This document shows positions 9,918-51,415 of a stretch of 64,000 bases of DNA, in pieces. Below the pieces are notes generated by a model. That model searched no databases. It had not been told where the DNA came from and saw nothing but the letters and a program-made list of their open reading frames with translations. Positions within the stretch are counted from its first letter, which is position 1, and each line of letters starts with the position of its first letter. The stretch comes from a virus: IMG/VR virus record IMGVR_UViG_3300036852_000742, positions 17,121-81,120 of that record; one strand, written 5' to 3'. A program made the translations under genes and the position numbers.

Positions 9918-10369
9918 CGCGCGCGTGATCTCGGGGTCTTCGCTGCTCGCCGGGACTTTTTGCGGGTCTCACTGGCACATTGCTTGCACTGACTCGCGCG
10001 CCCGTCGAGAAGCCCCTTGGCCGGGTAGAACTCGTCGAGGGGCTTCACCGCCCGGCAGCCCCGGCACGCTTTGAAGCCGTCGGGAGCCGCCGGCAACGGA
10101 TCCGGGGCCGGCCCAGCAGCAGCACGTTGCCGCTTGAGTTTGCGGCGCTCACCCTCGGTGAGTCCTCCCCAGATACCAGACGGGGCGTCGATCTTTATGG
10201 CCCAGTCCAGGCACTCTGCCTGGACTTCGCAACCTCGGCAGATCCGTTTCGCGACGTTGGTCTCCCAGGACGTTCCGGCGCCATGCTCAGGGAAGAAGGC
10301 CTCCGCGTCGGTCTCAAGGCATGCCGCGAGGTCTGTCCAGTCCTGCCCGGCGAGTTGGAAGGCTGTCAC
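9890..10369 (-). CDS. whiB: WhiB-family transcription factor with C-terminal zinc-finger-like extension
   Basis: WTDLAAC...FFP...AKRICRGCEVQAECLDWA...GIWGGLTEGERR; extra CRGC...CKQC. Confidence 0.9.
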   Translation of the reverse strand: MTAFQLAGQDWTDLAACLETDAEAFFPEHGAGTSWETNVAKRICRGCEVQAECLDWAIKIDAPSGIWGGLTEGERRKLKRQRAAAGPAPDPLPAAPDGFKACRGCRAVKPLDEFYPAKGLLDGRASQCKQCASETRKKSRRAAKTPRSRARIAPRSTAG

Positions 10370-13123: not shown

Positions 13124-14610
13124 CGGGGGCCGCCTGTCGGCCACGCCGCGAACCAGATGTGGGTCGGGTACTCGTGTTCAGCCCCGTCGTCCAGGCGGAT
13201 GGTCACCCAGTCGCCGCGCTCGCCGCGCCTGTCCACGGGGGAGCAGTACGCGACCGGGCCGGCGAAGTTTCGGATGAGGTGCCGACCGTTGAAGCCCCGG
13301 TCCCAGACGCCTTTGACGATGTCACCTACCTCGATCCGGTCGACCCGGATGTCTTCGGGGTCACCGGGTGGGAACTCCCACGCGGGGGTGCCGACGACCG
13401 GGGTCAGCGACGCGGCGATGTCCGGGACCGGTTCGCCGGCCTCAAGCCGGTCGTACACGTCCAGGTAGGCGGCGCTCAGCGCCCGGGTCGCGGCAACGTC
13501 GGCGCCGGGGGCGGGTTGGCGTACCGCTACCTCAACGTCGGCAGCACCCAGGTCAAGCCCATGTACCAGTCGCTGCGCCCATTCGACGTGCCTGGCGAGC
13601 TGGCGTGACGCGTCGTCGTACCGGCCGCCGGTGCGCCTCCACAGTTGCTGCCAGCGGTCAACCTTGGAGGCGAGCGCCGCCGACCATGGGGTGCTGGCCG
13701 GGGTGTCCCACTGCATCCCGTCCCGGCGCCGGCCGGTGACCCCGTCGTACTTGACGGTCTTCGGCCAACTGCTGCTGGCCAGGGAGACACTCTTCGGGTT
13801 GATCCGGGTGACCTTGTACCAGCCGTGCCCCCCGACCCGAGCCCAGTCACCTTTGGCGAAGTCTTCCGGCGCCCCAGCAACGAACTCACCGGACGCGGCC
13901 AGCTCTTCGAGCACCTTCCGCCAGTGGCGGATCTCTTCTGCGAGCCGGTCGACCTCGCGTTGCGACTTCTCTCCGGTTCCGCCGCTGGTCAGGGAGTCAT
14001 CCCGGCGCCGCTCCCACTGCCGCACCTCGGCCGACAAGGTGTCGATCCGGCGCATCGTGACCCTCGGGTTGTGCCGGGCCTTCTGGTTGGCTGCTACACC
14101 GTCGGCCCGGTCGGCGAGGTCCCGGGCGTAGCGGCGTTCGTCGGCGGCGTGCTCCTGGCTGCGGCTGGCCCGCTCCCGACGGTTCCGGTCAGCCGGGTAG
14201 GAGTAATGGTCGACTAGCAACGGCTGCCCGAACGGGATCGAGTCGTGGACCCGGTCGGCGGCGGCCTGGTGGCCGGCGGCGCGGGTAGCGGCGAGGCCTG
14301 CGCGTTCGTCGAGCCGGTCGGCGCGGACCTCAGCCCGGTCGGTCCGGGCAGCCTCCCGTACGGCGGTGGGCCGCCACCGGTTGTCGATCTGGACGGTGAC
14401 CACGTGGTCGGCGTCGCGCAGCGCCTGCGCAGCGCGATCGGTCTTCTCCTGCTGGCCGTCCTTGTCGCGGCTGTTTTTGATGTAGATGCCGACGGTACGA
14501 CCCCACGTGAAGCCGTGCCGGCTGACGATCTCCAACACGCCGTCGCCCTTGTGGGAGCCAGTTAACAGGGTCCCGTCGGCGTGGGTGTGGCTGATAAGGA
14601 TTGCGGTCAT
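13120..14610 (-). CDS. DUF3560 domain protein
   Basis: ATG 14610; ISHTHADGTLLTGS.KGDG, IPFGQPLLVDHYS, MRRIDTLSAEVRQ, VTRINPKSVSL. Confidence 0.8.
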   Translation of the reverse strand: MTAILISHTHADGTLLTGSHKGDGVLEIVSRHGFTWGRTVGIYIKNSRDKDGQQEKTDRAAQALRDADHVVTVQIDNRWRPTAVREAARTDRAEVRADRLDERAGLAATRAAGHQAAADRVHDSIPFGQPLLVDHYSYPADRNRRERASRSQEHAADERRYARDLADRADGVAANQKARHNPRVTMRRIDTLSAEVRQWERRRDDSLTSGGTGEKSQREVDRLAEEIRHWRKVLEELAASGEFVAGAPEDFAKGDWARVGGHGWYKVTRINPKSVSLASSSWPKTVKYDGVTGRRRDGMQWDTPASTPWSAALASKVDRWQQLWRRTGGRYDDASRQLARHVEWAQRLVHGLDLGAADVEVAVRQPAPGADVAATRALSAAYLDVYDRLEAGEPVPDIAASLTPVVGTPAWEFPPGDPEDIRVDRIEVGDIVKGVWDRGFNGRHLIRNFAGPVAYCSPVDRRGERGDWVTIRLDDGAEHEYPTHIWFAAWPTGGPR

Positions 14611-15385
14611 CGTGGTGCTCCTTGGGGAACGGTGAGCAGGATGGCCAGCGCCGCATGGGCGGCGGCGACCCGGATGGTGCTGTGCGCGGCGTCGCGGCGG
14701 CGGTGCTCTTCGCGTTCGGCGGCGCTCACCGAGTGACCGAAGACGACCATCCCGCCGATGCCGCCCCCGTCGGTGACCACGCGGTGTGCGATACCGACCA
14801 GGTCGGCATGCGCAGCAGGTGTGCCGATCCACCGGCGGGCCTGGGGCAAGCTCGCGAACTGGACCTCCAGCTCGGGCAGGAGCGCGGCCAACTCGACGAG
14901 CGGCAGGTAGATCGCCCCCCACGGTGTGCCGGGGGTTTCGAGGCGTTCCACGGCCCATTGCCCGTCCGTCGACTGGGCTGCCCACACCTCCGGGCGGGTG
15001 CGCCCGGAGGTGGGGCCGCCGAGGAACGTGACCCGGCTGCTGGTGGTGACACCCGTCACCGGGGTCACGCCGTTCACAGCGCGTCCTCTTCTTGGCAGCA
15101 GCCGCAGCAGAACCGGTGCCCGGTGTTGCACGGGCCAACACCCAGTTGGTGCGGTTCGTGGCAGTGCTGGTGGTCGCAGTCGACCGGCTCCGGGTCGGCG
15201 CAGGTTTTGTGGGGCTGGAGCGCCCGGCATTGCTGGTCGGTGGGGGTGTCGGCGCATTCGGCGCAGGCGTCGGCGTGGACCCATCGGCCGGCGGTGTAGG
15301 CGAGGAGCCCACCGCAGGTGCACTGGGCGATGGCGGTGCGCAGTGCGGGTTGGGTGGTGACAAGGGTCAGGGCCGGTGCGGGCAT
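14607..15385 (-). other. two coupled hypothetical genes (14607-15077; Cys-rich 15074-15385)
   Basis: 4-bp overlaps; immediately downstream of promoter 15441-15471. Confidence 0.55.
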
Positions 15386-15440
15386 GGTCGGGTTTCCGTC
15401 TCTGTGTGGGTGGGGGTTTCCAGCTCCCCTTCCGGTGTCC

Positions 15441-15515
15441 ATATTACCCGACGTGGTAGCGCGGGGCAATATCTGGGGTCGACGTATTGCCCCGCGCTAG
15501 GGCATGGGGTAGCAT
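15441..15515. promoter_or_regulatory. back-to-back divergent consensus promoters
   Basis: Minus 15441-15471 TTGCCC-17-TAATAT; plus 15485-15515 TTGCCC-17-TAGCAT; located at the strand switch. Confidence 0.85.
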
Positions 15516-15565
15516 AGTGGTTGTGAGGGGAGCTGGAACCCCTCCAACTGAGACGGAGAACCGCC

Positions 15566-16066
15566 ATGGCCACCACGAAGACCGGACGTAAGACCCCCCG
15601 TCGGCGGTCCACTCAGGAGCGCCACGACGAGTACGTACACCTCACCGCGCTCGTCGAGCAGTTCGACCTCGCCGGGGACACGGACGGTGCGCTCGCAGCT
15701 CGCTTCGCCCACTTCTGCACCATCTACAGCGAGCGCAACGCAATCCTGATCCTGGCCCAGAAGCCGGACGCGATCGAGGTCCACGGCTACGTCGACTGGC
15801 AGAAGCTGGGCCGGCAGGTGCGCCACGGCCAGACCGGAATCCGCATCATCGCCTACACGGGCTCCCGTCCGAACAAAGGCAAAGGCGACCTCAGCGAGAC
15901 AGACCCTGCTGTGATCGACCCGACCACGGGAAAGCCCACCCGTCGCGACTTCAACCCGGTGTCCGTCTTTGACATCACCCAGACCGACCCGATGGGGCAA
16001 GACGCCGAAGCGCTCGCCGCCGTGGCCCGGTTCGAGGCCAACCAGGCAGCCAAGGCCGCGTCATGA
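15566..16066 (+). CDS. ArdC-like N-terminal ssDNA-binding domain protein (putative anti-restriction)
   Basis: YSERNAILILAQ...VHGYVDWQKLGRQVRHGQTGIRI...VSVFDITQT. Confidence 0.8.
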   Translation: MATTKTGRKTPRRRSTQERHDEYVHLTALVEQFDLAGDTDGALAARFAHFCTIYSERNAILILAQKPDAIEVHGYVDWQKLGRQVRHGQTGIRIIAYTGSRPNKGKGDLSETDPAVIDPTTGKPTRRDFNPVSVFDITQTDPMGQDAEALAAVARFEANQAAKAAS

Positions 16067-16461
16067 CCGTGCGGACTGGGTCGGCGTACAAGGCGTGGAC
16101 GCCCCGGCAGGCCGGCTACGACCTGCCGGCCACGGTCGTCACCACCAGCCACGGCGACGGGGGCTTTACTCAGCACTACGTGCCCACTCGCCACGGCGCC
16201 GTCTGCCGGACGTGGACCGCCCCATCCATGACCGAGGTGGCCCTGTGCCGCACCAGCAACACCGGCGCGACGTTCCAGGGCGAGGTCAAACACTTCTCGT
16301 ACGGCGGTTGGATCGCCTACGACCACAACGGCCAGCAGGTCTGCGACCCGTTCGCCGACTACCTCGACGCCGAGGCGACCCTGTTGCGCTTGCGCGGCGG
16401 ACGCCGCTGCCAGGCCACCTACCGCTGGAACGTTCTCCCCGTTAGGAGCACCCGGTCATGA
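16063..16461 (+). CDS. hypothetical protein
   Basis: ATGA-coupled on both sides. Confidence 0.6.
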   Translation: MTVRTGSAYKAWTPRQAGYDLPATVVTTSHGDGGFTQHYVPTRHGAVCRTWTAPSMTEVALCRTSNTGATFQGEVKHFSYGGWIAYDHNGQQVCDPFADYLDAEATLLRLRGGRRCQATYRWNVLPVRSTRS

Positions 16462-17108
16462 ATCTGAACCTGCGAGAGCTGATGACGGTCGACGTCCCAG
16501 CGGGTGACGTGCGGGGGTTGCGGGTGGAGCGGTTCACCGTGGACAGCACTTCACCCGGTCATCTGCGCGAGGTGCTGCGCGGACGGGGAACCCGACCGGG
16601 TACGTACACCCGGCTGCTCGCCGGGCACCGGCTGTGGATGACCGACACCGACGCCGAGCGGCAGGATCACATGCCGGCTGCGCGCCGCATCGCCCAGACC
16701 GGCACCCGCCGGGTACTGATCAACGGCCTCGGGTTGGGCATGGTGCTGCGCGTCGCCCTCGCCATGGACCACGTCGAGCACGTTGACGTGGTCGAGATCG
16801 ACGACCGGGTGATCGAGCTGGTCGGGGCGCACTACACCGACCCCCGGCTGACCCTGCACCACGCCGACGCCTACGACCAGGCCCGCCGCTGGCCGGCCGG
16901 CTCCCGCTGGGACGTGGTCTGGCACGACATCTGGCCGGACCTGTGCACCGACAACCTGGACGGGATGGCCCGGCTGCACCGCTCCTACGGCCGCCGCGCC
17001 GGGTGGCAGGGCTCCTGGGGCAAAACCCTCCTGGAGGGCAAAGCTCGCGCTGACCGCAAGCAGGACCGGGAATGGGCGCGTGCACGGGCGTGGGTGGCGT
17101 CGCGATGA
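16458..17108 (+). CDS. class I SAM-dependent methyltransferase-like (spermidine-synthase fold)
   Basis: VLINGLGLG...VDVVEIDDRVIELV...HADA...WDVVWHDIW. Confidence 0.8.
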   Translation: MNLNLRELMTVDVPAGDVRGLRVERFTVDSTSPGHLREVLRGRGTRPGTYTRLLAGHRLWMTDTDAERQDHMPAARRIAQTGTRRVLINGLGLGMVLRVALAMDHVEHVDVVEIDDRVIELVGAHYTDPRLTLHHADAYDQARRWPAGSRWDVVWHDIWPDLCTDNLDGMARLHRSYGRRAGWQGSWGKTLLEGKARADRKQDREWARARAWVASR

Positions 17109-17752
17109 ACACCCGGCCGCGTGACTCGCAACGCTCCCGCCTGTACAAAGCGGAGCATGTCCTGCTCATGTACGGGGAGAACGCGTTCGGCAGCAACACC
17201 GACACCCAACGGTGGGTGGACCGGGTACTCGGGGAGCGCTGGTTCCGGTCCCGCTGGCAACTCCCCACCCTTCCGGTGACTCCCGGTCGGGGCGGCACCG
17301 CCACCTCATGGGGCGGGCGGATCACCGTCGGGCCCACGGCACGCAACCCGGGCATCGTCCTCCACGAGATCGCCCACGAGATCATCCGCGTGACCCCTCG
17401 CGGCCCATACGCCTCCCACGGCCCTGAGTTCGCATCGGTGCTGTTGTTCCTGGTGCGGCAGGTGATGGGCCCCGCCCAGGCCAACGAGCTGCGGTTGGCG
17501 TTCGTCCGCGAGCGGGTCCGGCACCGTGCCGGCTGGGTGGTCCCAGCACCCCGCTATGACGTACCCACCCAGTCGACGGTGCAGGCCGCCGCCCGTAGGG
17601 AAGCCGCCCGCCCGGTCACACGCGCCGAGGCGCTAGCGGCGGATGACGTCTTGCGCCGGCTGGTCCGGGCCGGCAAGTTCGGCCCTGCGGGCTCCGCCAC
17701 CCGCAACCACGCCCTCGAAACCGCCCGCACCCTCACCCGGGAGACGCTATGA
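17105..17752 (+). CDS. HEXXH metallopeptidase-like protein
   Basis: RDSQRSRLYKAE...VLHEIAHE...HGPEFA. Confidence 0.75.
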   Translation: MNTRPRDSQRSRLYKAEHVLLMYGENAFGSNTDTQRWVDRVLGERWFRSRWQLPTLPVTPGRGGTATSWGGRITVGPTARNPGIVLHEIAHEIIRVTPRGPYASHGPEFASVLLFLVRQVMGPAQANELRLAFVRERVRHRAGWVVPAPRYDVPTQSTVQAAARREAARPVTRAEALAADDVLRRLVRAGKFGPAGSATRNHALETARTLTRETL

Positions 17753-18402
17753 CCGACATCATCTTCGCCGAGCCCTCAGGTGACGTACTTCAACGATGGG
17801 ACAACGCGGATCGGGTCCCCTCCCAGGGCGACCTGGTGTCGCTGCACGCGGGTGACCGTATGTATGCGGGTCCCGCCGGGCGGCGGGTCACCTGGCAGGT
17901 CCAGGGCCGGGAGTGGTTACACGCCGAAGTGATCCAACTGACCATGGTTGACACCGCTGCCGACACCAAAGCCCGCCGCACCGGCGAGGCAGACGTGGGT
18001 TGGCTGGCGATCGATTACAACTACAACCTGCCCGCGTTGATCGACTGGGTGCTCAGCGACCCGGAAGCGATCGACATGGGGTCCTTTAACCGCACATCAC
18101 CGACGTTCTTCGCCGACCTGGCGGACGTGGTCGCCGCACTCACCGCCGACGGCGGGCTGTGGCGCCTGGCCGACGGTGTTGAGGGGGTGCGCGTCGTGAC
18201 GTTGGCCGGCGGTTACGAAGACCTCGACCAGGGCATGGTGCGCGTCGACCTGTCCAACGGGCTGCGCCTGGTGTCCGCCCCGTTCTCGGCCAGAGAAATG
18301 GGCCCCGAGCGGGGCTTCCCAACAACCGTTGGGGCGCTGAAGACGGTGGCGCAACACGCCAACCGGGAGTACTCCCGCTACCGAAGGCTGACCCGTTTGT
18401 GA
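17749..18402 (+). CDS. hypothetical protein
   Basis: ATGA overlap; followed by hairpin. Confidence 0.6.
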   Translation: MTDIIFAEPSGDVLQRWDNADRVPSQGDLVSLHAGDRMYAGPAGRRVTWQVQGREWLHAEVIQLTMVDTAADTKARRTGEADVGWLAIDYNYNLPALIDWVLSDPEAIDMGSFNRTSPTFFADLADVVAALTADGGLWRLADGVEGVRVVTLAGGYEDLDQGMVRVDLSNGLRLVSAPFSAREMGPERGFPTTVGALKTVAQHANREYSRYRRLTRL

Positions 18403-18408
18403 CGTTTC

Positions 18409-18458
18409 GCGGGGTCGCACCCGTGGCTTGGCTTGGCCACCGCCGGGTGCGACCCCGC
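18409..18458. terminator. 15-bp perfect inverted repeat, probable terminator
   Basis: gcggggtcgcacccg...cgggtgcgaccccgc. Confidence 0.65.
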
Positions 18459-18568
18459 TTAGCGTGCGTTCCCCAAAGAACTACGACGCACCAGGAAGGT
18501 TACGCCATGTTCTACAGTGATCGCCGCACAGGCGGACCACTCTCGCACCGCACCAGGCCGGTGACCCC

Positions 18569-19006
18569 GTGAACTGGCTCGGGCCGATCCTGGTCAAAGA
18601 GTTCATCCAGACGGTCCTCCTGTGGATCCTGTTCACCCACGTGCAGCAGCAGTTGGCAATGTCCACGGCCCGCCAGATGGCCCTCGCCGTCGCCGTCGGG
18701 GCTGCCGTCGGTGCCGCGCTCGCCGCCGTGAGCCACTGGACCACCCGCCCGATGGTTCACTCCGTGTTGTACCAGTCCCTCGGCCGGCTCGCCGTGTGGG
18801 TAGCCCTCGCCGCGACTGTGGGTGTTGTCCTGTCCCGCAACGTGTGGGCCGGCGGCGCCGGGGTCGCCCTCCTGGTGTGCGCCGGGGCTGTCCCCGCATG
18901 GCGGGTGGCCCGCGCTGGGGCGCACCGGTGGCGACCCGGCCCAACCTCAGGCCCGTGGCTGCGCGCCCAGGTTGTCACCCAGTCGAAACTGGGGCAGTCC
19001 CCTTGA
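18569..19006 (+). CDS. membrane protein
   Basis: About four hydrophobic segments. Confidence 0.6.
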   Translation: MNWLGPILVKEFIQTVLLWILFTHVQQQLAMSTARQMALAVAVGAAVGAALAAVSHWTTRPMVHSVLYQSLGRLAVWVALAATVGVVLSRNVWAGGAGVALLVCAGAVPAWRVARAGAHRWRPGPTSGPWLRAQVVTQSKLGQSP

Positions 19007-19884
19007 TGGGGCCCTCCCACGCGATCAGCGGCGGCGCGGTGTGGTTGGCCGGCTGCGCCGCCGCGACCACCACCCTTGGGGCTGACCTGTCGTGGCAGGC
19101 GGTGGTGGTCGGGGCGGTGGTGTGCGCCGGGTGGGCGCTCGCCTCCGACCTTGACCACCCTGATTCCACCGTCGCCAACTATGCCGGGCCGGTTTCAAGG
19201 CTGGCTGCGCACGGCATCGCCTGGGCAGGGGTGCGCATCCACGCCGCTACCCGCACCCGCTGGGACCGCCCAGACGAAGATGGTCACCGGACCTTCAGCC
19301 ACACCGCCGTGTACGCCGTTGTGATGGGTGTCGCGGCGGCGGCCGGTGGGCGCTACGGCGGGCCGTGGGTCGCGGCCGTCCTGGTGGCCCTCGCCGCCGA
19401 CCTGGCCGGCGACGCGGCCCTGCCCGGCCGCTGGTGGGACATCCCGATCAAAACCGGTTTCAGAATCCGGTTCATGCGCCGCCCGTGGGCCAAAGGCCTG
19501 TTCGGGCGCACCGGGCAACGGTGGGCCCGCAACTGCCGCCGGGTGAACATCCCCACCTCAACCCTGCTCGCCGCCGCACTCGGATGGGCCGCGTACCAGC
19601 TCACCCCCGCCGACGCGTGGTGGCTGGGGCTCGCAGTCGGTACCGGGGTACTCGTGCACTGCGCGGGTGACATGCTCACCGACTCCGCGTGCCCGGTCGC
19701 GTGGCCGCTGCCCTTGGGCCCTCCCGGCCAGCGGCGGCGCTGGTACCCGCTCGGCCCGCCCCGCTGGATGCGCTTCCACACCGACGGCCTTGTCGAGCGC
19801 TGGCTGGTCCGCCCCGCCCTCGTAGCGGGCGCCGCCGCGTCCACCACTGTCCTGCTGTTCCCGCTGATACAGGAGAAAACCTGA
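19006..19884 (+). CDS. YdjM-like membrane metal-dependent hydrolase
   Basis: MGPSHAISG...SDLDHPDST...HRTFSHT...VHCAGDMLT. Confidence 0.8.
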   Translation: MGPSHAISGGAVWLAGCAAATTTLGADLSWQAVVVGAVVCAGWALASDLDHPDSTVANYAGPVSRLAAHGIAWAGVRIHAATRTRWDRPDEDGHRTFSHTAVYAVVMGVAAAAGGRYGGPWVAAVLVALAADLAGDAALPGRWWDIPIKTGFRIRFMRRPWAKGLFGRTGQRWARNCRRVNIPTSTLLAAALGWAAYQLTPADAWWLGLAVGTGVLVHCAGDMLTDSACPVAWPLPLGPPGQRRRWYPLGPPRWMRFHTDGLVERWLVRPALVAGAAASTTVLLFPLIQEKT

Positions 19885-21465
19885 TGCCCGAATCTGGACC
19901 TAACCCGTTCGTCTACCTCCTCTGGTCGAACTCCGCCAACGCGTGGTGGGCAGCCGGCACGGGTGCCGGCCACACCAAAGATGTGTGGCAGGCGGGCCGT
20001 TTCGACAAGGACGCGGCGGCCAGCACGTGCGCCGCGTTTACCCCGGCCGTTGTGGTGATGGTGCTGGCCCCGGAGTACCACCACGCACCGTTCACCGCAG
20101 CACAGCTACGGGAGGAGGTACCGGACATGATGCAGCGCCGGGTCCGCGACGCCACCGACCGGGCTGTTGCCGACGCGTACGCCGCCCGCCAGCCGGGGTA
20201 CCCGCCGGTGCACGTCTACTTCCTGCACGACACGCTCACACCCCGCACCGTCCGGGCCGTCCGGGACCTTGCCGCCGCGCCGGCCGTGGGAGACGTGTTC
20301 GACTTCCCGCACGCCGGCTACGAGGGCGCCGCCGTGACGTGGCGGGTGACCAGGGTCGAGATCACCGAGCAGGGTGGCAGCGCGACGGCGTACATGACCG
20401 ACGCCGGGGAGGGACACCAGTGAGCCGCGCCGCCCAGGTGCGGGCCTTCGCCCGTGACCTGTCCGAGCGGACCGGGGTAAGCATTGAGGTGTCCTATGAC
20501 AGCGGGCCCCGCTGGCATCTTGAGTGGAGCGACGGGCCTTCCCGCGACGCGGTCATCAAGGCGGCCACAAAGACGGACCTGGCCGGCGCCGTGATCGTGA
20601 CGCACCGGCATTACTCCACCCGCGCTGTCGCCCTCGGCTCGATACGCCTGGCAGCCTCAACCACCACCTACGGGCACTCCACGGCGGAGACAAGGACCTG
20701 GCGGATCGAGGAGACGCTGGAGGAAGTCGACTATCCCGACCGGGCCGCCGACGCCCGCGAAGAGCACATGGTCAACCGGGTGTTGGTTGAGGCGACACCG
20801 GAAGGGTGGAAGTGGACTGACCGGGATCTCGTTGTTGCCTTGATTGGGCGGAAGGGGCTGGGGTGGTTACTCGCCGACGCAGACCCAGGTGTGGCAAGCC
20901 CCGCAGAGATCCTGACCGCCCGCTACGCCACGACGGGCGCTGAGGTTATCCAGTGGAATCGACACGCCCACCCGATGCCGGCGGCCGACGCGGTCCGGGC
21001 CGCGCTCGCCGACCCGGACCTGGGCGCCGTTGGCTCGGTGGCGTTGCTGAGGCTGCTCCGCCAGCTAAGGGAAGACCGGCAGCGGGCCGAAGACTTGGCG
21101 GTAGCTGTCGCCCAACGGGCCGGTGTGCCTTTGTGGGAGATCGCCGACGCGCTCGGGGTTGACAAGGTGCGTGTTTCCGGTGCCCAACACCAGGACACTG
21201 AACACACTCTCACCGGTACGAGGAAGGATGACGGCTGATGCCCACTACAGAGAATGAGCTGCCCACCGTTGTGGAGATGTTCGTCCGCGCGGACACCCTG
21301 ATGGACACCGCGCACCGGGCGCTTGCCGACGCGGCCGACTGGCTGCGCTCGGACTGGCAGCCCCTCGGGGCTAGCTTGACCGACGCGCAGGCGGCCCGCC
21401 GCAGCAAGATGTTCGCCGAGATCGAGGCTGCGATGGCCGCAATCGAAAGGGCCAGGCGCTCATGA
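19884..21465 (+). other. three coupled hypothetical genes (19884-20423, 20420-21238, 21238-21465)
   Basis: TGATG/GTGA/TGATG overlaps leading directly into the Cas12 gene. Confidence 0.6.
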
Positions 21466-23513
21466 TCACAGTTGTGTATCGGTACGGTGTCGCGTCCTGG
21501 TGGCGGGCACCAGAGTGGATCAGCGAGCAACTTCGGCTAGGGCACAACCTCGACAACGACCTTGTCTCGGTTGCCTACGAGCACGAGGAGGCCAAGGCCG
21601 CGCATTGGACGGCGTTCCCGCAGATCGCCGTTCACGAGGCCGCCCTAGCAACAGCCGAGACTGAGGCTGTGGATCTCTTCGCGCACGTCAAGCAGGTGCG
21701 CGGATGGCTGGGCAAGGCCAAACACGACAAGGACAAGCTCCGGGCCGCCGAGCTACGGGTGGACCTTGCCGCTGCGCAGGCCGATCTGAGGGCCGTCAAG
21801 GCCGGCATCGCCGCTCTGAAGTTGGAGCGGCGGACGTCGATCGCCGACGTGTACGAGCAGTCCACGGAGGCCCTGGCCGCGCTGTCGGACGACCGCAAGG
21901 CAAAGATCGGAGCCTTGTACGGGCGGTACTGCGGCAGCGACGGCGCTGAGGACGGCAGCGAGGATGCGGACGTGCTGCACTGGGCCAGCTTCAACGCCGC
22001 CGTCAAGCACCACGAAACCGCCCGCCAGCGGATGTTGAAGGCGCGTGGTGCCGGGCAGGCCGCCCAGCTCCACTACCACCGGTGGGACGGCACAGGTGCG
22101 GTCACCGTGCAGTTGATGCGCCATGCCTGGTCGCATGGGTGCGCACCGTCGGGTCCTCCGTGGCCGTGCAACCCGGACAAGCCGCGCCCAAAGGCCGTTG
22201 ACTGCCCGAACCGGCAGGCCAAAGACCCGGCCCGGTCACCGCAACTCCTCGCTGCCGGCGGCGGGAAATGGGCCAACGTGTTCCAGCTCAGCCCGTGGTC
22301 GCGGGACCCTGTGGCGTGGAAACGCCAGCCCCGTACCGCGCGGCGCGGCACAGCAACCCTGACCCTCAGCGGCGGCCGGCGCCTTGAGGTCCCCGTCCTC
22401 GTTGACCGGGTCCTGCCCGCAACTGCTGACGTACCGCAGGCGCAGCTCGTGCGGTCTGAGGTAGCCGGCCGGATGGTGTGGCACCTGTGCGTGACGGCGA
22501 TCCTGCCCGACCCGGAGCCGGTGACCACCGGCCCGACCGTGGCGGTACACCTGGGGTGGCGGCGCCGCCCGGACGGGCATGTCCGTGCCGGGGTTGTCCT
22601 ACCCGACGGGCCACTCCCCCCACCACCCGCCGACCTGCTGCGGGCCGCGTCGTCGAGCCCCGGCCGCACCGGCACCGCCCCAACCCATGTCCCGCATCAC
22701 CGCCCGTTCTTGGAACGCCACGACGGCTGGTGGGAAGTTGTCATCCCCGGCCCGATGTGGGACATCGTCGGCCGCCCGTCGGCAATCCGGGCACGCCGGG
22801 ATCTCGCCTTCAACGAGATCCGGGACGTGCTGGTCAGGTGGTTGGATGAGCACCCGGAGCACGCCGACCCGCTGGGGCTCGACCTGGCCCGGGTCAAACT
22901 GTGGCGGGTGCCACGGGCACTGGCCGGCCTGGTACGACGGTGGGCCAGCGACGCGCAACTACCGGCCCTGTTCGCCGCGCAGTTGCTCCCCGACCTGGTC
23001 GCCTGGTGGCGACGGGACCTGCACCTGTACCGGTACGAAGTCGGCGAACGCCACGACCTGGCCGCCCGCCGTGACGACGTGTGGGGACAGATCGGGGCAT
23101 GGCTCGGCCGGTCAGCCGGCCGGGTCCTCGTCGGGGACGAGGACTACCGGGCGCTGCGCCGACGCACCAGCATCGTCGACGACGACATGAGCGCACCGAC
23201 CGAAAGGGTCGATGAGGCGGTCCGTGCCCGCGCGGCCTTCGCCGTACCGGGGCTGCTACGCGCAGCGCTGACCAACGGCGCGAGCCGGCGCGGCGTGACC
23301 GTGGCGAAAGTCCCGGCAGCGTGGGCCACCCGGGAACACCACGAATGCGGCCATGTCGCGACCGGTGACGACGACCAGTACAGGGAGCGGATCGTGGTGA
23401 CCTGCCCTGGTTGCCAGGTTGCCTACGACCAGGACCGCAACGCGGTGCTGGTGATGCTGGAACGCGAGCGGGCCGGTAGCACGGGGGCGAAGGGGGACCG
23501 CTCGCAGCCCTGA
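21462..23513 (+). CDS. cas12m: type V-M (V-U1) Cas12m-like CRISPR effector, RuvC catalytically degenerate
   Basis: 683 aa next to a CRISPR array; motifs I recall from Cas12m (QLRLGHNL, LYGRYC..LHWASFN, HRWDGTGAVTVQL, LCVTA..PEPVTTGPTVAVHLGWR, RRDDVWGQI, PGLLRA, TREHHECGH, CPGC..YDQDRN); RuvC-I Asp replaced by His, RuvC-II VLVGDED. Confidence 0.88.
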   Translation: MITVVYRYGVASWWRAPEWISEQLRLGHNLDNDLVSVAYEHEEAKAAHWTAFPQIAVHEAALATAETEAVDLFAHVKQVRGWLGKAKHDKDKLRAAELRVDLAAAQADLRAVKAGIAALKLERRTSIADVYEQSTEALAALSDDRKAKIGALYGRYCGSDGAEDGSEDADVLHWASFNAAVKHHETARQRMLKARGAGQAAQLHYHRWDGTGAVTVQLMRHAWSHGCAPSGPPWPCNPDKPRPKAVDCPNRQAKDPARSPQLLAAGGGKWANVFQLSPWSRDPVAWKRQPRTARRGTATLTLSGGRRLEVPVLVDRVLPATADVPQAQLVRSEVAGRMVWHLCVTAILPDPEPVTTGPTVAVHLGWRRRPDGHVRAGVVLPDGPLPPPPADLLRAASSSPGRTGTAPTHVPHHRPFLERHDGWWEVVIPGPMWDIVGRPSAIRARRDLAFNEIRDVLVRWLDEHPEHADPLGLDLARVKLWRVPRALAGLVRRWASDAQLPALFAAQLLPDLVAWWRRDLHLYRYEVGERHDLAARRDDVWGQIGAWLGRSAGRVLVGDEDYRALRRRTSIVDDDMSAPTERVDEAVRARAAFAVPGLLRAALTNGASRRGVTVAKVPAAWATREHHECGHVATGDDDQYRERIVVTCPGCQVAYDQDRNAVLVMLERERAGSTGAKGDRSQP

Positions 23514-23641
23514 CCGCGCAGGCCAAGGGTTAGTGTCAGCACCGAGAACGGGGCCATAACTCCACAGTGGACAAGTGTCCAGGGGAGCACTCGCGACGAT
23601 CTACGTTTGCGCTGCTCAACCTGCGGCTTTTTCCCCAAGCC

Positions 23642-25495
23642 GTGGCAATGGCGATCGCAGCGCCCTTTCTCTGCGAGCCACATGGTGAGCTTGCACGGCC
23701 AGACAATGATCTCGTGGCAATGGCGATCGCAGCGCCCTTTCTCTGCGAGGCGTCAGGACGTCAGCTACTACAGGTCTCCGTCCGAGTGACAACGGCGAGC
23801 GCAGCGCCTCGAACTCTGCGAGCGGCCATGTCTACAGAGGCCGGCGCATCGTCGGTTCGACGCGACAATGGCGAGCGCAGCGCCTCTTTCTCTGCGAGTG
23901 CGCCATGGGTTTACGCGGACTCCTGGCGAGGTACGTGACGACGGCGAGCGCAGCGCCTCAAATCTGCGAGGTCCGGGCTGTCGCGTTCGTCATGGGTGAC
24001 GAACGCGATCGCAGCGATCCTTCTCTGCGAGTACGTCGACGACTCCGGCGCCGAGGCGAGGCGGTTCAAGTGGCAATGGCGATCGCAGCGCCCAAAGACT
24101 GCGAGCTTAGCTCCTCGTCGTAGTACCCCTGCACTGCAAGGTGGCAATGGCGAGCGCAGCGCCTGAAATCTGCGAGCCGGTGATTCGGTGCGGCCGGCGT
24201 TGGGTGGTACCTGCATGTGACCATGGCGAGCGCAGCGCCTCAACTCTGCGAGAAGGGGCAGGGCCTGTCGCGCGTACCAGGCCCGCGCGGTGACCATGGC
24301 GAGCGCAGCGCCTCAACTCTGCGAGTCCCGCCAGCTTGACTACCCGCTAGCCTGGATCAGGCCGGTGACCATGGCGAGCGCAGCGCCTCAACTCTGCGAG
24401 TCTCCACCGGCGTCATGCTCACTTCGCGCAACCCCAAGGTGACCATGGCGAGCGCAGCGCCTCAACTCTGCGAGGAGGGTCTCCCGTAGCAGCTCGGTGC
24501 AGCGTGACAACGGCGAGCGCAGCGCCTGAAATCTGCGACGCTATATCGTGAAGCAGGCGCACCATTATGAGCGTGGTGACAATGGCGAGCGCAGCGCCCC
24601 TCTTTCTGCGAGTACCTGAACCACGCCCGAGCGGCTTCCGTTGCCTGCGGCGTAGCAACGGCGAGCGCAGCGCCCTTTTTCTGCGAGTGCGTGTGCGGCG
24701 AGGCCGCAGTACTGACGCGACAGTGGCGAGCGCAGCGCCTAAAACCTGCGACTTGGTATCCCGATCCAGGCGGCCCGTGAGACCGCGTAAGTGACAACGG
24801 CGACCGCAGCGCCCTTTCTCTGCGAGGCTGCAATGAGTAACTACATGGATGTCCGGCGCAGGTAACGATGGTGATCGCAGCACCTCAAAACTGCGAGTGG
24901 ATGGTCCCGATGTTGGTCGTGATCGAGGGCGCCGCGCGTGACAATGGTGATCGCAGCACCTCAAACTGCGAGGTCGTCAGCCGCACGGACGCGGCAAGGT
25001 TTGAGACCATGAGCGACAATGGCGATCACAGCGCCTCAAAACCTGCGAGCTGGATGCGGCGGCGGAGCATCTCCGCGTCGCGCGTACCGGCGACAATGGC
25101 GATCACAGCGACCACAAACTGTGAGATCCTCTCAACCGGTGCTAGCTTGCGCGCGACCGGTTGCGTGACGATGGTGATCGCAGCGCCCAAAACCTGCGAG
25201 CACGGCAGCGCCTCCAGCCCGACCGGTTGCGCGACGACGGTGAGCGCAGCACCCAAGAAGACACTGCGAGTTCGAGTACGTGTCGGCTCCTCCAAGGGCG
25301 ACATGGGCGACGATGGTGAGCGCAGCGCCCAAAGTCTGCGAGTGATGGGGTGGCGCGAGCAGTACGACCGCATGCAGGTGGCAATGGCAATGGCGATCGC
25401 AGCGCCCAAAACCTGCGAGTCCATAGCTTGGATGGGTTACCACTCCGCGCTACGGCGCGACAACGGTGATCGCAGCGCCCCAACGATCCTGCGAG
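23642..25495 (+). CRISPR. CRISPR array, 26 heterogeneous 35-42-nt repeats and 25 spacers (25-40 nt)
   Basis: Consensus G(T/C)GACAA(T/C)GGCGA(G/T)CGCAGCGCC-variable-CTGCGAG; repeats start at 23642, 23714, 23786, 23862, 23935, 23996, 24070, 24141, 24217, 24290, 24365, 24439, 24504, 24576, 24652, 24717, 24791, 24862, 24938, 25013, 25090, 25165, 25231, 25307, 25378, 25457. Confidence 0.95.
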
Positions 25496-25516
25496 TACTG
25501 CTCCGGGTGCGAAGAA

Positions 25517-25555
25517 TGCCCCGCCCCAAACGCCAGCGGCGTCGGGGGCGGGGCA
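25517..25555. terminator. stem-loop closing the array; lies between convergent units
   Basis: tgccccgcccc...ggggcggggca. Confidence 0.65.
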
Positions 25556-25572
25556 ACGTGCGCGGGGAGAAG

Positions 25573-25842
25573 CTAGGCCACGGTGACGTGCACCCCGTCC
25601 GCCAGGTCCACTGCACCTCCGGCGCGGGCCACCCGGTGCGCAGCTTCGGCGGTGAGCCCGGCGGCGACCAGGCGCAGCATCATCGCCGCCACTTTGGGTT
25701 CGGTGGCCGGCCAGCGGCGGGGTACACCCGATCCGGGGGCGGGGTCGACAGGTTGGAGGTAGCCGCGCCGGGTCCACACATCGGCCCGGCGGGGGGTGAG
25801 CCCGACAGCGAGCATGTCCTGGTAGCCGGCGTCGTTGTTCAC
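25573..25842 (-). CDS. MerR-like HTH protein
   Basis: GLTPRRADVWTRRGYLQP...GSGVPRRW...LVAAGL. Confidence 0.6.
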   Translation of the reverse strand: MNNDAGYQDMLAVGLTPRRADVWTRRGYLQPVDPAPGSGVPRRWPATEPKVAAMMLRLVAAGLTAEAAHRVARAGGAVDLADGVHVTVA

Positions 25843-26162
25843 CGCCGTGTCGGCGGTGTTGTCGGGTTGTACTGGGGCTGCCCGGTGGACACACCCAACG
25901 ACAACAGGACCCGGGCGGCGCGGTGCGCGAACCCGGCGCCGCGCCGGGTATCGGGCCAGCGTTCCAACCACCGCCCCAACTCCCACACCGCCCCGGCGAG
26001 CACAAACCCGATGACCTCGAAGAGCACTGCCTCACCAACATGAACGCCCAACGGCTCCAACTTCACCAGCGCCGGTTGCGCCCACACCACCAGCACAGCG
26101 GCGACGTGTCCGAGCAGGATCGGCCACCAGGTCCGCAGCCGCGCGGCAAGCTCATCGGACAT
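25839..26162 (-). CDS. putative holin
   Basis: Two TM segments, LRTWWPILLG...RWLE...QPQY; in lysis region. Confidence 0.6.
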   Translation of the reverse strand: MSDELAARLRTWWPILLGHVAAVLVVWAQPALVKLEPLGVHVGEAVLFEVIGFVLAGAVWELGRWLERWPDTRRGAGFAHRAARVLLSLGVSTGQPQYNPTTPPTRR

Positions 26163-26236
26163 GCCTGCCTCCACGCGTAGCCTTGGGCCGGTGACAGACA
26201 AAGCCAACGGGTTGATCTGTTGACATCCTCCCCCGT

Positions 26237-27460
26237 CTAAGGGCGGGGGATTCCAACTGCAAGCGGTTGAGGTTCACGGGCGCTCAACGCCTTGCGGCGT
26301 GTCGCCCCTCCGGCACGAGACGGTTGTCTCGGGACTGGTGTGCAGTCCTGTCCTGCCGCGATGTTGATGCTGGCGTTGTGGTCGGCGTTGCAGGTAAAGC
26401 CGCAGGCGGTGCAACAGAATCGGGCTTGGCTCTCGCGCGAGTTCTTGTCGATCCATCCGCAGGCACTGCAACGCAGGCTGGTGTAGGCGGCTTTGACTTT
26501 CTGGACGCGGCCGGGGGCTTTGTCTTCGGTGCGCCGGGCGAGCATGCCCCACCCGGACGCGAGGATGGCCCGGTTCAGGCCGGCCTTCTGCCGGACGTTG
26601 CGGCCGGGGCTATCGACGGTGCCCCTTGCGGTCGCGGTCATGTTCTTGATCCGCAGGTCTTCGAGGCGGATCACGTCGAACCGGCGGGCGAATGCGGTGC
26701 TGGTTTTCTCGGTCCAGTCCTTGCGGATGTCCGCCTCGCGTGCCTTGAGCCGTGCGATCCGCTGACGCTCAACCTGCACTACCTCGGACCGCTTCGGTGC
26801 CCGAGCCTTGCGCCGTTCTGCCTTACGCAGTCGGGCCCGCTCTTTGCTGGACAGGCGAGGGCAGGCCAGTGTTTCGCCCGTGCTCAACGCGGCCGTGATG
26901 GTCACGCCCCGGTCGACGCCGACAACCGTTCCGTTTCCGGGAGACTCGATCGGGTCGGGGATGACCGCGAACGCGACGTGCCAACGCCCGGAGCGGTCAC
27001 AGGTGATGCGGTACGACTTGCATGCCGCAACGGATCGCGACCAGCGGAACCGAACCCAGCCAACCTTGGGAACCTTGACCTGACCCCAGTGTCGGTTCAG
27101 CCGTTGGACATGGAGTCCGAAGGTGAAGTCGGTGATCCGGAAGCCTTCGTGGACGTACTTGCTGCGCCACGTCGGCCGCATGTGGGCGCCCGTAAAGAAG
27201 TTGGCCATGGCTTGGGCGTAGTCGCGCAGAGCCTGTTGCTGGACGTTAACCGAACCGGCGGCGAGCCACGGCTCGGCGGTGCGCGCTTCGGTGAGTTGGC
27301 GGCACTGGACGACGAAGCTGGGGGCCGACCGACGGGCACGCGCGGGCGTCCACCACGCTCCCTGTTCAACGGCCAGATTCCAGACGTACCGGGCGTCACC
27401 GCAGTGCGACAGAAGGGTCGCCTCCTGCGCCACGGTCGGGTACAGCCGATACCTGGACAT
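26237..27460 (-). CDS. tnpB: RNA-guided endonuclease TnpB
   Basis: MSRYRLYPT...; intact RuvC triad GVDRG / RLEDL / NADHNA; YTSLRCSACG..FCCTACG zinc finger. Confidence 0.95.
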   Translation of the reverse strand: MSRYRLYPTVAQEATLLSHCGDARYVWNLAVEQGAWWTPARARRSAPSFVVQCRQLTEARTAEPWLAAGSVNVQQQALRDYAQAMANFFTGAHMRPTWRSKYVHEGFRITDFTFGLHVQRLNRHWGQVKVPKVGWVRFRWSRSVAACKSYRITCDRSGRWHVAFAVIPDPIESPGNGTVVGVDRGVTITAALSTGETLACPRLSSKERARLRKAERRKARAPKRSEVVQVERQRIARLKAREADIRKDWTEKTSTAFARRFDVIRLEDLRIKNMTATARGTVDSPGRNVRQKAGLNRAILASGWGMLARRTEDKAPGRVQKVKAAYTSLRCSACGWIDKNSRESQARFCCTACGFTCNADHNASINIAAGQDCTPVPRQPSRAGGATRRKALSAREPQPLAVGIPRP

Positions 27461-27488
27461 GGAACCATAATAGCACCATGATGGTCCC

Positions 27489-27638
27489 ATGAAGCATGTG
27501 AACCTGCGCCTACCCGACGACGTCCACGAGGCAGTCAAAGCAGCCGCCGAACACGACCGACGTTCCCTCAACAGCATGCTGATCGTCCTCATCGAGCGAG
27601 CCCTCACGGCAGACCGTCCAACCTCACCCCCGCCCTGA
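27489..27638 (+). CDS. Arc-like ribbon-helix-helix protein inside the IS
   Basis: Manual translation MKHVNLRLPDDVHEAVKAAAEHDRRSLNSMLIVLIERAL (49 aa), divergent from tnpB. Confidence 0.75.
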   Translation: MKHVNLRLPDDVHEAVKAAAEHDRRSLNSMLIVLIERALTADRPTSPPP

Positions 27639-27722
27639 AGGACGAGGCACCCGCCGGACAAGGGTCGGTGGCTGCCGGATCCGCACCGCCGCCCCGGTGA
27701 ATCGACGGCCCGGGTGCGCGGT

Positions 27723-28160
27723 TCAGAGTTTGAGGATGATCGCAAGGATCGAGCCTGCGAGGATCGCCGCCCCGCACAGGTACGCCCAGCCCAGATTCAG
27801 CCCGGTCGAGCGGCCTTCGGTCTTGTCGATCCTGGACGCCAACTCACGTATCCGCTCACCGGTACCGGCGCGCTGTGCCTCAAACTCGACGCGCGACACG
27901 AACGTGGCCGTCTGATCAGACAGGGTCTGACGAAACTCGTTGACCCCTTCGAAGCGTTTCTCCGTGGCCACTTCAGCCTTCGTGACGGCTTTCTCCGCCG
28001 CGATCAGCGCCGCCCCGATGGCCTTCTCGGCCGCGAGGAGGGCCGCGTCGATTGCTTTTGTCTGGGCGTCGAAACGCTGCTGGTAGCGCAGATCAGTTTC
28101 GACGAACAAGGCCCGGACATGCTCCAGGAGTGTGATACGTGAAGACCTCACACCCCACAC
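27723..28160 (-). CDS. lysis-cassette membrane protein (coiled coil + C-terminal TM)
   Basis: EKRFEGVNEFRQTLSDQ..., hydrophobic C-terminus. Confidence 0.65.
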   Translation of the reverse strand: MWGVRSSRITLLEHVRALFVETDLRYQQRFDAQTKAIDAALLAAEKAIGAALIAAEKAVTKAEVATEKRFEGVNEFRQTLSDQTATFVSRVEFEAQRAGTGERIRELASRIDKTEGRSTGLNLGWAYLCGAAILAGSILAIILKL

Positions 28161-28171
28161 CCCTTTTTTGG

Positions 28172-29056
28172 TTAGGCGCCGAACGCGTCGCCGGCAGCGG
28201 ACAGTCTGGTAGCGAGGTCGACGACCGCTGTTGTGAGCCCGGCCAGTGAGGCGCCTACGGCGGCCGACACGGATGCGGTGATCGCGGCGAGTTGCGCATC
28301 GGTCAGCTCGATGGGCGGTGCCGACGCGGCGGCCTCGATCCGGTCGAGCTGCTTGCCCCGCGCGCCCTTATCGGGTCCGTACGCGCCAGCGCTGGTCTGT
28401 TCGCCGGCCCACAAATCGGCCAGCAGAACAGCCGCCGTCCGGCTGCCCACAGATTCGGGTTTGCCCCATTCGCCGTAGTCGAGATCCGTCATTGGGTCCT
28501 CCATGAACGTCGCGATATCGGCGAGCAGCACGTCCCACGGGAACTCAGGCCCAGGGTCGGTGTGGTCGCCGCCGTCCTCAGGCCAGCCGATCGTCCAGTC
28601 GTAGTGCCCGCAGATCCCGCGCGCGGCCGGGTCGCGCACGCCTCGGCCCACGACGCGCACCGCCGGGATGCCCCACTTGGCCATGTCGCGGGCGGCCTGG
28701 CGGGCGGCGTTGCGGATCGTCGCCCGGCTCACCGGATCCAGCCACTGCGCCCGCGTCTGGACGGTGCCGGCCAGCTCGTAGTGGATGCCGAACGCGTTGC
28801 CGTGCCACAGCGCGGTGTGGCTGCGATCCGTCGTCCGTACACAGTGGACGACCGAGTCGCTGTCGACGTGATAGTGGGCACTGGTCCCGTCGGTGCGCCT
28901 CTGGTCGTACGCCGCGCCGCTCTCGCCCGCGTCCGGGCCTTCATGGCCGGCGGTGTAGTGGATCGTCACAAAGCGGGGTGGGCCGTCCGGGCGACCACGC
29001 GAAAACGAGCGCGGGGGCACCCACGCCAGATCCGGATATTCGGGAGACTGCGCCAT
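28172..29056 (-). CDS. endolysin, N-acetylmuramoyl-L-alanine amidase
   Basis: TIHYTAG...SAHYHVD...GIHYELAG...ICGH...HTDPGPEFPWD. Confidence 0.9.
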   Translation of the reverse strand: MAQSPEYPDLAWVPPRSFSRGRPDGPPRFVTIHYTAGHEGPDAGESGAAYDQRRTDGTSAHYHVDSDSVVHCVRTTDRSHTALWHGNAFGIHYELAGTVQTRAQWLDPVSRATIRNAARQAARDMAKWGIPAVRVVGRGVRDPAARGICGHYDWTIGWPEDGGDHTDPGPEFPWDVLLADIATFMEDPMTDLDYGEWGKPESVGSRTAAVLLADLWAGEQTSAGAYGPDKGARGKQLDRIEAAASAPPIELTDAQLAAITASVSAAVGASLAGLTTAVVDLATRLSAAGDAFGA

Positions 29057-29112
29057 CACTGCGCCCCCTTTCGCCGCGTCGAAGGGGGACACTGGGCGCC
29101 GTGAACATTCCG

Positions 29113-29865
29113 ATGAGCAGGGCCCTGTCGGTAGTTGCGGCGCTGGCTGTGGTTGTGGTGGGCGGTGCCGGACCGTCATCCACTCGCGCGGCGGCACTCC
29201 CGGCGGAGTTAGTGATCATGACCATGGGTGACTCGATCACCCTGGCTGCCGAGTCGGGCGGGGAAAGCTACCGCGCTGAGTTGGGGCGGCTCCTCGACCA
29301 GGCCGGCGTCGCGCACCGGTTCGTGATCGCCGCGCACGGCGGTTGGGGCTGCCGCGACTGGGTCCCGCTGGCGCAGAACCTCGTTGCGACGGAGCGGCCT
29401 GATGTTGTGCTGCTGAACTGCGGAACCAACGACGGCGGCCTGCCCGACTTCGAAGGGCAATACTACTGGCTGATCAACAACCTGTTAAGCGGCAACGGGT
29501 GGGGCACTCGGGTGATGCCCAGTTGGGTCATGTACTCGGCTGTGCCACCGGGAGCGGCCTGGTTGCGGGACAGTGAGCCCAGGGCCAACGACGCGATCTA
29601 CCGGGTGATCGTGCCGTCGGTCTGGAAAGCCCAGGGCCGGGTGGTCAACTTCGCCAACACCGGGGCCATCCCCGAGGCTTATTTGGACTCTGGCGGTGTC
29701 CACCCAACAACGGCCGGCTACACGGCGATGGGCAGGCTCTGGTTCGAGGCGTTGCGCCCGGTGTACGGGCTGCCGGACATCGCACCGAAAACGTGCGGGC
29801 TGACTGGGAGAAGACCGGGTGGCCTGACCCCGGCCTACCTTCCATGTACGGTCCTGGCTGGGTAG
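29113..29865 (+). CDS. secreted SGNH/GDSL hydrolase
   Basis: Signal-peptide-like N-terminus; GDSIT, GTND, DSGGVHPT. Confidence 0.85.
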   Translation: MSRALSVVAALAVVVVGGAGPSSTRAAALPAELVIMTMGDSITLAAESGGESYRAELGRLLDQAGVAHRFVIAAHGGWGCRDWVPLAQNLVATERPDVVLLNCGTNDGGLPDFEGQYYWLINNLLSGNGWGTRVMPSWVMYSAVPPGAAWLRDSEPRANDAIYRVIVPSVWKAQGRVVNFANTGAIPEAYLDSGGVHPTTAGYTAMGRLWFEALRPVYGLPDIAPKTCGLTGRRPGGLTPAYLPCTVLAG

Positions 29866-29871
29866 CCGGGT

Positions 29872-30480
29872 CTAGGCCTGGTAGCAGAGGAGGGCGAAGA
29901 TCTGGTCGTTGGTCGCCCACGCCGTCCCCGGGCCGGCGGAGCCCAGCGCGGTGCCGATGCCCTGCTGGAAGATCTCGATGTTGGTTGAGTTGAGCCCTCT
30001 GGCGACGTCGCAGTAAAAGCCGGAGCCGGAGTCTTGAATGAAGACCACACCGGCGCACCGGCTCTGCGCTGCCGTGCTGGCGGCGACCGGGATGCTGAAA
30101 CGGTAGGCGCCCGACCCGGCGGAGTAGGTGGACCCGATGGTGACCGCGAAGGCAAAGAACACGGTCTTGCCGATCTGGACCCACTCGGCGGCGTAGGTGC
30201 TGTTTCCCTTGGTGGGGTTGGTTGTGACGGCGGTGATCGCGAAGGTGGCCGAGTAGTCGGTCCAGGCCCCCAGCGGGAGACCGTTGAGCCAGGCGGCCCC
30301 GCTGTAGCCGTCGTACCGGTCGCTGTCAGCCAGGTACGACAGCATTCCCTCAACCGGTGCGGTGACCGCCGAGGTGCGGGCGGCCTCCGTGGCGAACGGG
30401 GTGACGACCTGGTCGCGGATGTTGGCGTTGGCCCACGCGGCGGTGATGGTCGTGCCGGCGACGTTCGTGGTGTAGGGCAC
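29872..30480 (-). CDS. minor tail / tail fibre protein
   Basis: GTTITAAWANANIRDQV...PVEGMLSYLAD; position after tail tip genes. Confidence 0.7.
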   Translation of the reverse strand: MPYTTNVAGTTITAAWANANIRDQVVTPFATEAARTSAVTAPVEGMLSYLADSDRYDGYSGAAWLNGLPLGAWTDYSATFAITAVTTNPTKGNSTYAAEWVQIGKTVFFAFAVTIGSTYSAGSGAYRFSIPVAASTAAQSRCAGVVFIQDSGSGFYCDVARGLNSTNIEIFQQGIGTALGSAGPGTAWATNDQIFALLCYQA

Positions 30481-30482
30481 CC

Positions 30483-30884
30483 CTACTCCTCCTCCCCACG
30501 CCAAACGCCCAACGGTCGGTGGTCGGCCTCGGCCGGGATCGGGTCGTAGCCCAGGCGCAGGACGCCGTAGCGGGCCGGCGCGCCCATCAGCCGCAGCGCC
30601 TTGCACACCGTGGAGCCGTGCGATTCGCCCTCGACCGCCGCTGTCGACTCATCGGCGGCGTGCCCAGCCCCGGCGCAGTAGTCCAAATTGGACGGTGCGA
30701 CCCCGCCGACCATCACCGCCCACCGGTAGCCGGCGGGGATCGTCGGATGCACGCCCACATCAATCGGGTGGATCACGACCGTCACTTCGGGCACCAGCAC
30801 AGGCCCTGGCGGGCCGGCGGGCACCACCCGCGCCACAAGGTCGGTCTCCGCCTTGGCCATGTAGTCGCTCAGGACTGCCGTCAC
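30483..30884 (-). CDS. hypothetical tail-region protein
   Basis: ORF in operon with RBS. Confidence 0.55.
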   Translation of the reverse strand: MTAVLSDYMAKAETDLVARVVPAGPPGPVLVPEVTVVIHPIDVGVHPTIPAGYRWAVMVGGVAPSNLDYCAGAGHAADESTAAVEGESHGSTVCKALRLMGAPARYGVLRLGYDPIPAEADHRPLGVWRGEEE

Positions 30885-30902
30885 CCGCGCTCCTCGCTGC
30901 TG

Positions 30903-51411: not shown

Positions 51412-51415
51412 TCGT

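Follow-up and report, generated by a model that had tools for sequence, protein, structure and literature searches.

A window of 64,000 nucleotides (nt; G+C 68%), corresponding to bases 17121–81120 of the 81,120-base-pair (bp) IMG/VR record IMGVR_UViG_3300036852_000742, labelled a provirus, carries a type V-M CRISPR locus. The locus consists of a cas12m gene (21462–23513, + strand; coordinates are those of the window) and of an adjacent array of 26 repeats and 25 spacers (23642–25495, + strand). It belongs to a tailed phage whose host is a high-G+C actinobacterium from soil, and is not an assembly chimera. It is probably an intact phage-borne module for silencing without cutting, with a fixed set of 25 guides whose likeliest targets would be rival elements of the same host, either phages or plasmids. 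By analogy with characterized relatives, Cas12m would cut the array transcript into guides, each with its spacer preceded by a repeat handle folded as a pseudoknot. The resulting complex would bind double-stranded DNA that bears a flanking protospacer-adjacent motif (PAM) through about 17 bp of the guide, stay on without cutting, and block transcription or replication of the target.

Systems of this kind are known. V-M systems on plasmids and “some prophages” have already been described (PMC11656645), and the myxophage MV-1 was reported to carry MvCas12m with an array for which no protospacers were found (bioRxiv 10.64898/2026.09.14.751636). To these, the present locus adds an actinophage host range, membership of a rare subclade whose middle RuvC motif is Gly-Asp, a pairing of Asp with G at the last repeat base, and an unusually long array with nearly all of its repeats different. 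It is also a clean and complete nuclease-free CRISPR module owned by a phage, with one of the larger acquisition-free guide sets found on viruses. Its gene, RuvC motifs, array, phage setting beside lysis genes, and lack of cas1, cas2, cas4 and of an obvious trans-activating CRISPR RNA (tracrRNA) had been picked out in an earlier reading of the letters alone (the original prediction), and all of these descriptions hold.

The effector and its RuvC site

The cas12m gene is a full-length, intact Cas12m gene encoding a protein of 683 amino acids (P0001). The original prediction had called for its grouping to be checked by sequence and structure, and both place it within Cas12m. In a phmmer search of the PDB, the protein matches over its full length MmCas12m2 of Mycolicibacterium mucogenicum (8HHL/8HHM/8HIO; PMC10442227), with E 3.7e-73 for 8hhl, both halves aligned, and a similar value for 8hio; it also matches over its full length GoCas12m of Gordonia otitidis (8pm4, E 1.2e-70). 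An exhaustive HMMER search of the library recovered 147 clusters (E ≤ 1e-30). The protein was modelled by AlphaFold from 20 relatives (predicted local distance difference test 85.8; predicted template-modelling score 0.77) and the model compared by Foldseek, where the top four matches were all Cas12m (E 3e-43 to 2e-36; template-modelling (TM) score 0.75–0.80 on the target). The best of these was 8hhl (E 3.4e-43, TM 0.78), GoCas12m scored E 7e-42, and the next protein outside Cas12m was Cas12f at E 1e-9. Helices at residues 18–157 of the model correspond to the coiled-coil REC insertion, a characteristic of Cas12m2 according to Omura et al. (PMC10442227). The WED domain carries D315 and R316, and the TNB domain forms a zinc ribbon, as in MmCas12m2, through C629, C648 and C651; this C-terminal domain is the only one that Pfam detects. 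The residues invariant among 20 family members, such as G365, W366, the three TNB cysteines and D658, are retained, and the G+C content at third codon positions is 0.84. IS200/IS605-type TnpB proteins are RuvC nucleases of about 400 amino acids, with a D-E-D triad and an omega-RNA and without an array. Such an identity for the open reading frame (ORF) was rejected: the NCBIfam TnpB model has a cut-off of 100 bits, and it scored 23.7 here, with only the last 70 residues aligned.

The RuvC site was mapped by two HMMER and two MAFFT alignments, which were concordant. Its motifs are VAVHLGW (H363), VLVGDED (G558–D561) and YDQDRN (D658). H363 is equivalent to H317 of MmCas12m2 and H322 of GoCas12m, and D658 to D579 of MmCas12m2, so that the RuvC-I His and the RuvC-III Asp are shared. 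The middle residue, D485 in MmCas12m2 and D497 in GoCas12m, is instead G558, followed by D559-E560-D561. The G558-D559-E560 stretch is invariant in a subclade of five proteins (P0001, P0003, P0004, P0005 and P0007) that are 49–62% identical to P0001 and its retention at such distances marks the Gly-Asp motif as a conserved variant rather than a recent lesion. By these alignments, P0001 sits in a rare Cas12m subclade with an H363-G558(D559)-D658 site. H363 and D658 fit the actinobacterial H-D-D type represented by GoCas12m, and the G558/D559 variant between them lies outside the triads tested in PMC11013384. Because the Cas12m proteins examined there by Bigelyte et al., with D-E-D, H-D-D and N-D-D triads, all bind DNA without cleaving it, non-cutting would be, by inference, the expected behaviour of this protein. 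GoCas12m itself blocks plasmids and phages through binding alone (PMC11013384); unlike the present locus, it is chromosomal or plasmid-borne, and it was studied with an engineered single-spacer array.

Other differences separate P0001 from MmCas12m2. It is longer (683 versus 596 residues) and has two additional, subclade-specific insertions, one Cys/His-rich at residues 223–250 and one Pro-rich at about 383–415. It also has Asp in place of His269 and Thr in place of R245. The 223–250 insertion (SHGC...PWPC...CP; window ~22128–22211) lies in the WED region, is modelled with low confidence and is common to P0009 and P0029, and P0008 and P0010 have there, instead, an insertion of the form CxC..C; the Cys/His-rich segment may bind metal. 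As for the spread of the subclade, single-protein scans of viral and genome contigs returned no relatives of P0001, and the five-member subclade profile had no match in the GTDB species genomes. In JGI metagenomes, the same profile matched two contigs, one of 2.1 kb at 59% identity and a distant one of 2.6 kb at 28%; neither is long enough to provide context.

The array and its guide handle

Between the cas12m stop at 23513 and the start of repeat 1 at 23642 lies a leader of 128 bp (23514–23641, + strand), the distance given in the original prediction, with no significant fold (z-score -0.31). The repeats are 35–40 nt long, with 22 distinct sequences among the 26, and the spacers 25–41 nt. When 23 bases of the repeat are specified as a pattern, it occurs 19 times in the window, where chance would give 0.02, and every match is on the + strand and within the array.

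Repeat positions are numbered here backwards from the spacer. The published Cas12m2 handle is a pseudoknotted 36-nt repeat with A(-24) and a G(-23):A(-2) contact (PMC10442227), and the same features recur in this array: A at -24, G or U at -23 facing A at -2, and a 5-bp stem between -22..-18 and -7..-3. A second stem joins GGCG (-28..-25) to CGCC (-17..-14), and the two together make an H-type pseudoknot. Across the alignment of all 26 repeats, pairing within this pseudoknot holds in 92.7% of cells, against at most 57.6% in slid controls. Compensatory changes occur in both stems: C-G has become U-A in three distinct repeats in the second stem, with U-G intermediates, and in one case G-C has become A-U in the first (-22..-18/-7..-3). 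Variation falls mostly in the loop and in the eight 5′ bases; in the structure of Cas12m2, the counterparts of the latter (-36 to -30) are disordered. The repeats thus appear to have drifted under a selection that nevertheless kept the fold gripped by the protein. Unlike the repeats of MmCas12m2, nearly all of them differ from one another.

The last base of the repeat offers a further sign that protein and array belong together. His269 of Cas12m2 reads this base, C(-1) (PMC10442227). Its position is occupied here by D315, and the base is G in 24 of the 26 repeats. In a comparison of eight virus-borne systems, repeats end in GAG in the two with Asp (this phage and contig L005, whose proteins are 32% identical) and in GAC in the six with His. 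The sample is small and the pattern consistent, and the Asp/G(-1) pairing ties the array to this cas12m. Together with the handle, it marks the array as cognate to the effector, with the CRISPR RNA (crRNA) read from the + strand and the repeat forming its 5′ handle. The swap of His for Asp with that of C for G, like the Gly-Asp motif, bears on how Cas12m recognizes its guides. The 22 different, functional-looking handles also map which handle positions can vary, and may be useful for the design of stable multiplex guide arrays.

As with MmCas12m2, the locus has neither tracrRNA nor adaptation genes. No anti-repeat, the sign of a tracrRNA, was found near the locus or elsewhere in the 81-kb record. 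A six-frame profile search of that record, which CheckV estimates to be 83% complete, gave no match to Cas1, Cas2 or Cas4; control genomes did score. Because acquisition genes are missing, the 25 guides form an inherited, fixed set. The same arrangement is found in MV-1, whose genome is complete: a phage Cas12m with an adjacent array, no cas1, cas2 or cas4, no tracrRNA and no protospacers. MvCas12m differs in its D-E-D triad, its length (610 residues), its 8 spacers with one consensus repeat, and its proteobacterial host.

Viral Cas12m loci were further compared in a set of nine IMG/VR contigs encoding Cas12m. The contigs L002–L009 share 31–38% identity in Cas12m with this phage and have the same architecture, with a downstream array of 36-nt repeats that is drifted in several of them; all belong to other Cas12m subclades. 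Cas1 is present only in L002 and L009, both of which have uniform arrays of ~31 near-identical repeats. Among the six array-bearing loci without Cas1, L003, L004, L006 and L007 have clearly drifted and L008 slightly, and the six repeats of L005 are uniform. This distribution fits the idea that repeat uniformity is kept by acquisition and lost without it. The near-identical L002 (3286–9654 of its contig) and L009 (3343–9711) carry Cas12m, then Cas1 (E 4e-81), then the repeats; an adaptation gene in a V-M locus on a viral contig is unusual for the subtype. In L004, strongly drifted mini-arrays lie on either side of cas12m (7774–7912 and 10004–10095), with a spacing of 51–56 nt and spacers of ~16–20 nt.

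Some smaller features of the array may be added. Blocks of identical repeats are limited to R9–R12 (24217–24474) and the leader-proximal R1–R2 (23642–23749), which may mark the latest additions or recombination with a sister array. In the leader, a possible -10 element (TAGTGT, 23531–23536) and a weak hairpin with a T-run (23611–23632) can be proposed; the count of terminator-like sites for the latter is not above that in shuffles, and no shared leader or promoter motif was found. Directly after the last repeat, a strong G+C hairpin (25517–25556; minimum free energy -51.7 kcal/mol, z -4.2, none of 200 shuffles equally stable) is likely to act as a terminator in both directions, lying between the array and the - strand genes that converge on it.

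Guide targets and rival explanations

The spacers have a mean G+C content of 65%, and in most of them third-position G+C is very high in one frame. This composition fits capture from coding DNA, either of high-G+C organisms or of their mobile elements. The original prediction had proposed a search of the spacers for their targets. This was run against the phage's own record, INPHARED, PLSDB and 47 IMG/VR viruses with a related portal, and yielded no protospacer. Against the 81-kb record, the longest matches were ~14–16 nt among the matches listed; self-regulation through self-targeting guides was accordingly ruled out. INPHARED (blastn, word size 11) gave only one 28-nt match at E 0.6. PLSDB gave four weak matches, none taken as a protospacer; the best, between spacer 22 and a DUF6884 gene of a Streptomyces plasmid, has a 2-nt gap, extends into the repeat flanks and was set aside as chance. 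The best match among the 47 viruses, in record G038, spans a spacer-repeat junction and was likewise attributed to chance. For spacers 1 and 17, exact seeds of 24 nt had 0 matches in all of IMG/VR. Because no protospacer was found, the PAM could not be read. Spacers 21 and 22 (25126–25230) share their terminal 11 nt, CGACCGGTTGC, and spacers 9 and 20 (24253–25089) have 12 nt in common; these are possible partial duplications or spacers from related sources.

The interpretation first offered, a multiplexed repressor aimed at host defence genes or at competing phages and plasmids, thus stands for its Cas12m, its non-canonical RuvC site, its cognate array and its lack of adaptation genes, and is left without a protospacer for its guide targets. 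This last result weighs against a working module directed at rival elements, as it bears on both target class and PAM, and other points weigh in the same direction. G558 stands at the site of D485, which in MmCas12m2 serves in non-target-strand binding and silencing, and activity could be weaker. Some units may be poor substrates, namely R6 and R21, whose first stem is mismatched, and R13 and R16, where C takes the place of G at the last base. Neither a tyrosine integrase nor a large serine recombinase was detected in any frame of the ~83% complete record. No RNA runs with this DNA are listed, the sole run being one of DNA from a soil metagenome. On the other side, the type IV-A and V-M systems of plasmids (PMC11656645) are likewise nuclease-free, acquisition-free and carried by an element, and the silencing of rival elements known there would by analogy apply here, although type IV differs in being a multi-subunit class 1 system.

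Could the same working module be aimed at the host chromosome, and silence genes of the host, whether for defence or not, while the phage infects or is lysogenic? An effector that by homology does not cut is well suited to such use, cas12m lies inside a phage operon and is not a separately promoted insert, the spacer G+C agrees with a high-G+C host, and the phage and plasmid collections gave no matches. Missing matches are, however, equally expected if the targets are unsampled soil phages and plasmids, and according to published surveys, nuclease-free CRISPR systems carried by elements direct their guides mostly at other elements (PMC11656645); we regard a chromosomal target as rather unlikely. 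A decaying relic would also explain the lack of targets: the array would have drifted after losing its acquisition machinery, with the RuvC-II Asp lost and the guides useless, in agreement with the differences among 22 of the 26 repeats, the glycine at the D485 position and the weakened stems of R6 and R21. Yet the ORF is full length with a coding-type composition, the Gly-Asp-Glu stretch is invariant in its subclade, and the repeat changes avoid or compensate paired positions, all of which make decay quite improbable. The same diversity could itself have been selected, keeping the 25 guides stable by removing substrates for recombination and recognition of uniform repeats, with an effector that would tolerate varied repeats since it would read only the pseudoknot. 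With the Asp/G(-1) pairing and the Gly-Asp motif, this would set the lineage apart as a V-M subtype adapted to phages, its silencing programme fixed, a possible but doubtful extension.

Preservation of the handle fold amid otherwise variable sequence might also point to repeats that serve mainly as RNA decoys and sequester a Cas12m of the host, with the spacers irrelevant. This is highly improbable in view of the complete cognate effector directly upstream, of a WED residue matching the unusual last repeat base, and of spacers that are of normal length and resemble captured coding DNA. Scarcely credible, finally, is a fusion of host DNA to phage DNA through assembly error, a chimera that the original prediction had itself raised. 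The source is a soil metagenome and repeats break de Bruijn graphs, but Logan contigs, which probably come from the same reads and thus represent a second assembler and not a second sample, bridge both junctions. They cover 14000–23670 and 24445–31145 with zero differences and break only at identical repeats. The first, of 17.5 kb, runs from phage early genes through cas12m to repeat 1, and the second, of 6.7 kb and similar depth, from repeat 12 through tnpB and the lysis genes to tail genes. The G+C content is level throughout the region. The reading of the locus as a phage-owned silencing module aimed at rival elements is therefore retained as the best explanation.

Genomic setting

The cas12m gene terminates a run of + strand ORFs with short overlaps that starts at 15566. 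The last of these before cas12m is a small phage ORF of 75 amino acids (21238–21465, + strand) with no Pfam family, whose stop overlaps the cas12m start codon in an ATGA. Further left are AAA_24, DUF3560, DUF932 and DUF6011 genes, typical of the early genes of actinophages. To the right of the array, and all on the - strand, come a TnpB gene, a holin-like ORF, and genes for endolysin (28172–29197), tape measure (32175–34964), capsid/protease (44364–45560), portal (49699–51459) and large terminase (51416–53038). The portal is 43–46% identical to those of several cultured phages, mostly actinobacterial (Brevibacterium, Glutamicibacter), and identity reaches 64% among IMG/VR viruses. No tRNA genes lie within the 64-kb window. 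The provirus label may rest solely on 6.7 kb trimmed off the parent contig.

Two other members of the cas12m operon are a protein with a spermidine-synthase-like methyltransferase fold (16458–17108) and a YdjM-like inner-membrane protein (18622–19884, + strand; Pfam E 1e-15). The TnpB gene between the array and the lysis genes (P0002; 26237–27460, - strand) encodes an intact IS200/IS605-type protein of 407 amino acids with D-E-D motifs (NCBIfam guided_TnpB, E 7e-62, 209.9 bits); it is present in a single copy in the record and has no sequence kinship with Cas12m. An Rfam search over 20000–29000 gave no match above threshold, and weak sub-threshold HgcC matches flank this TnpB gene (26209–26310 and 27608–27741, - strand), which may be guide-RNA or end structures.

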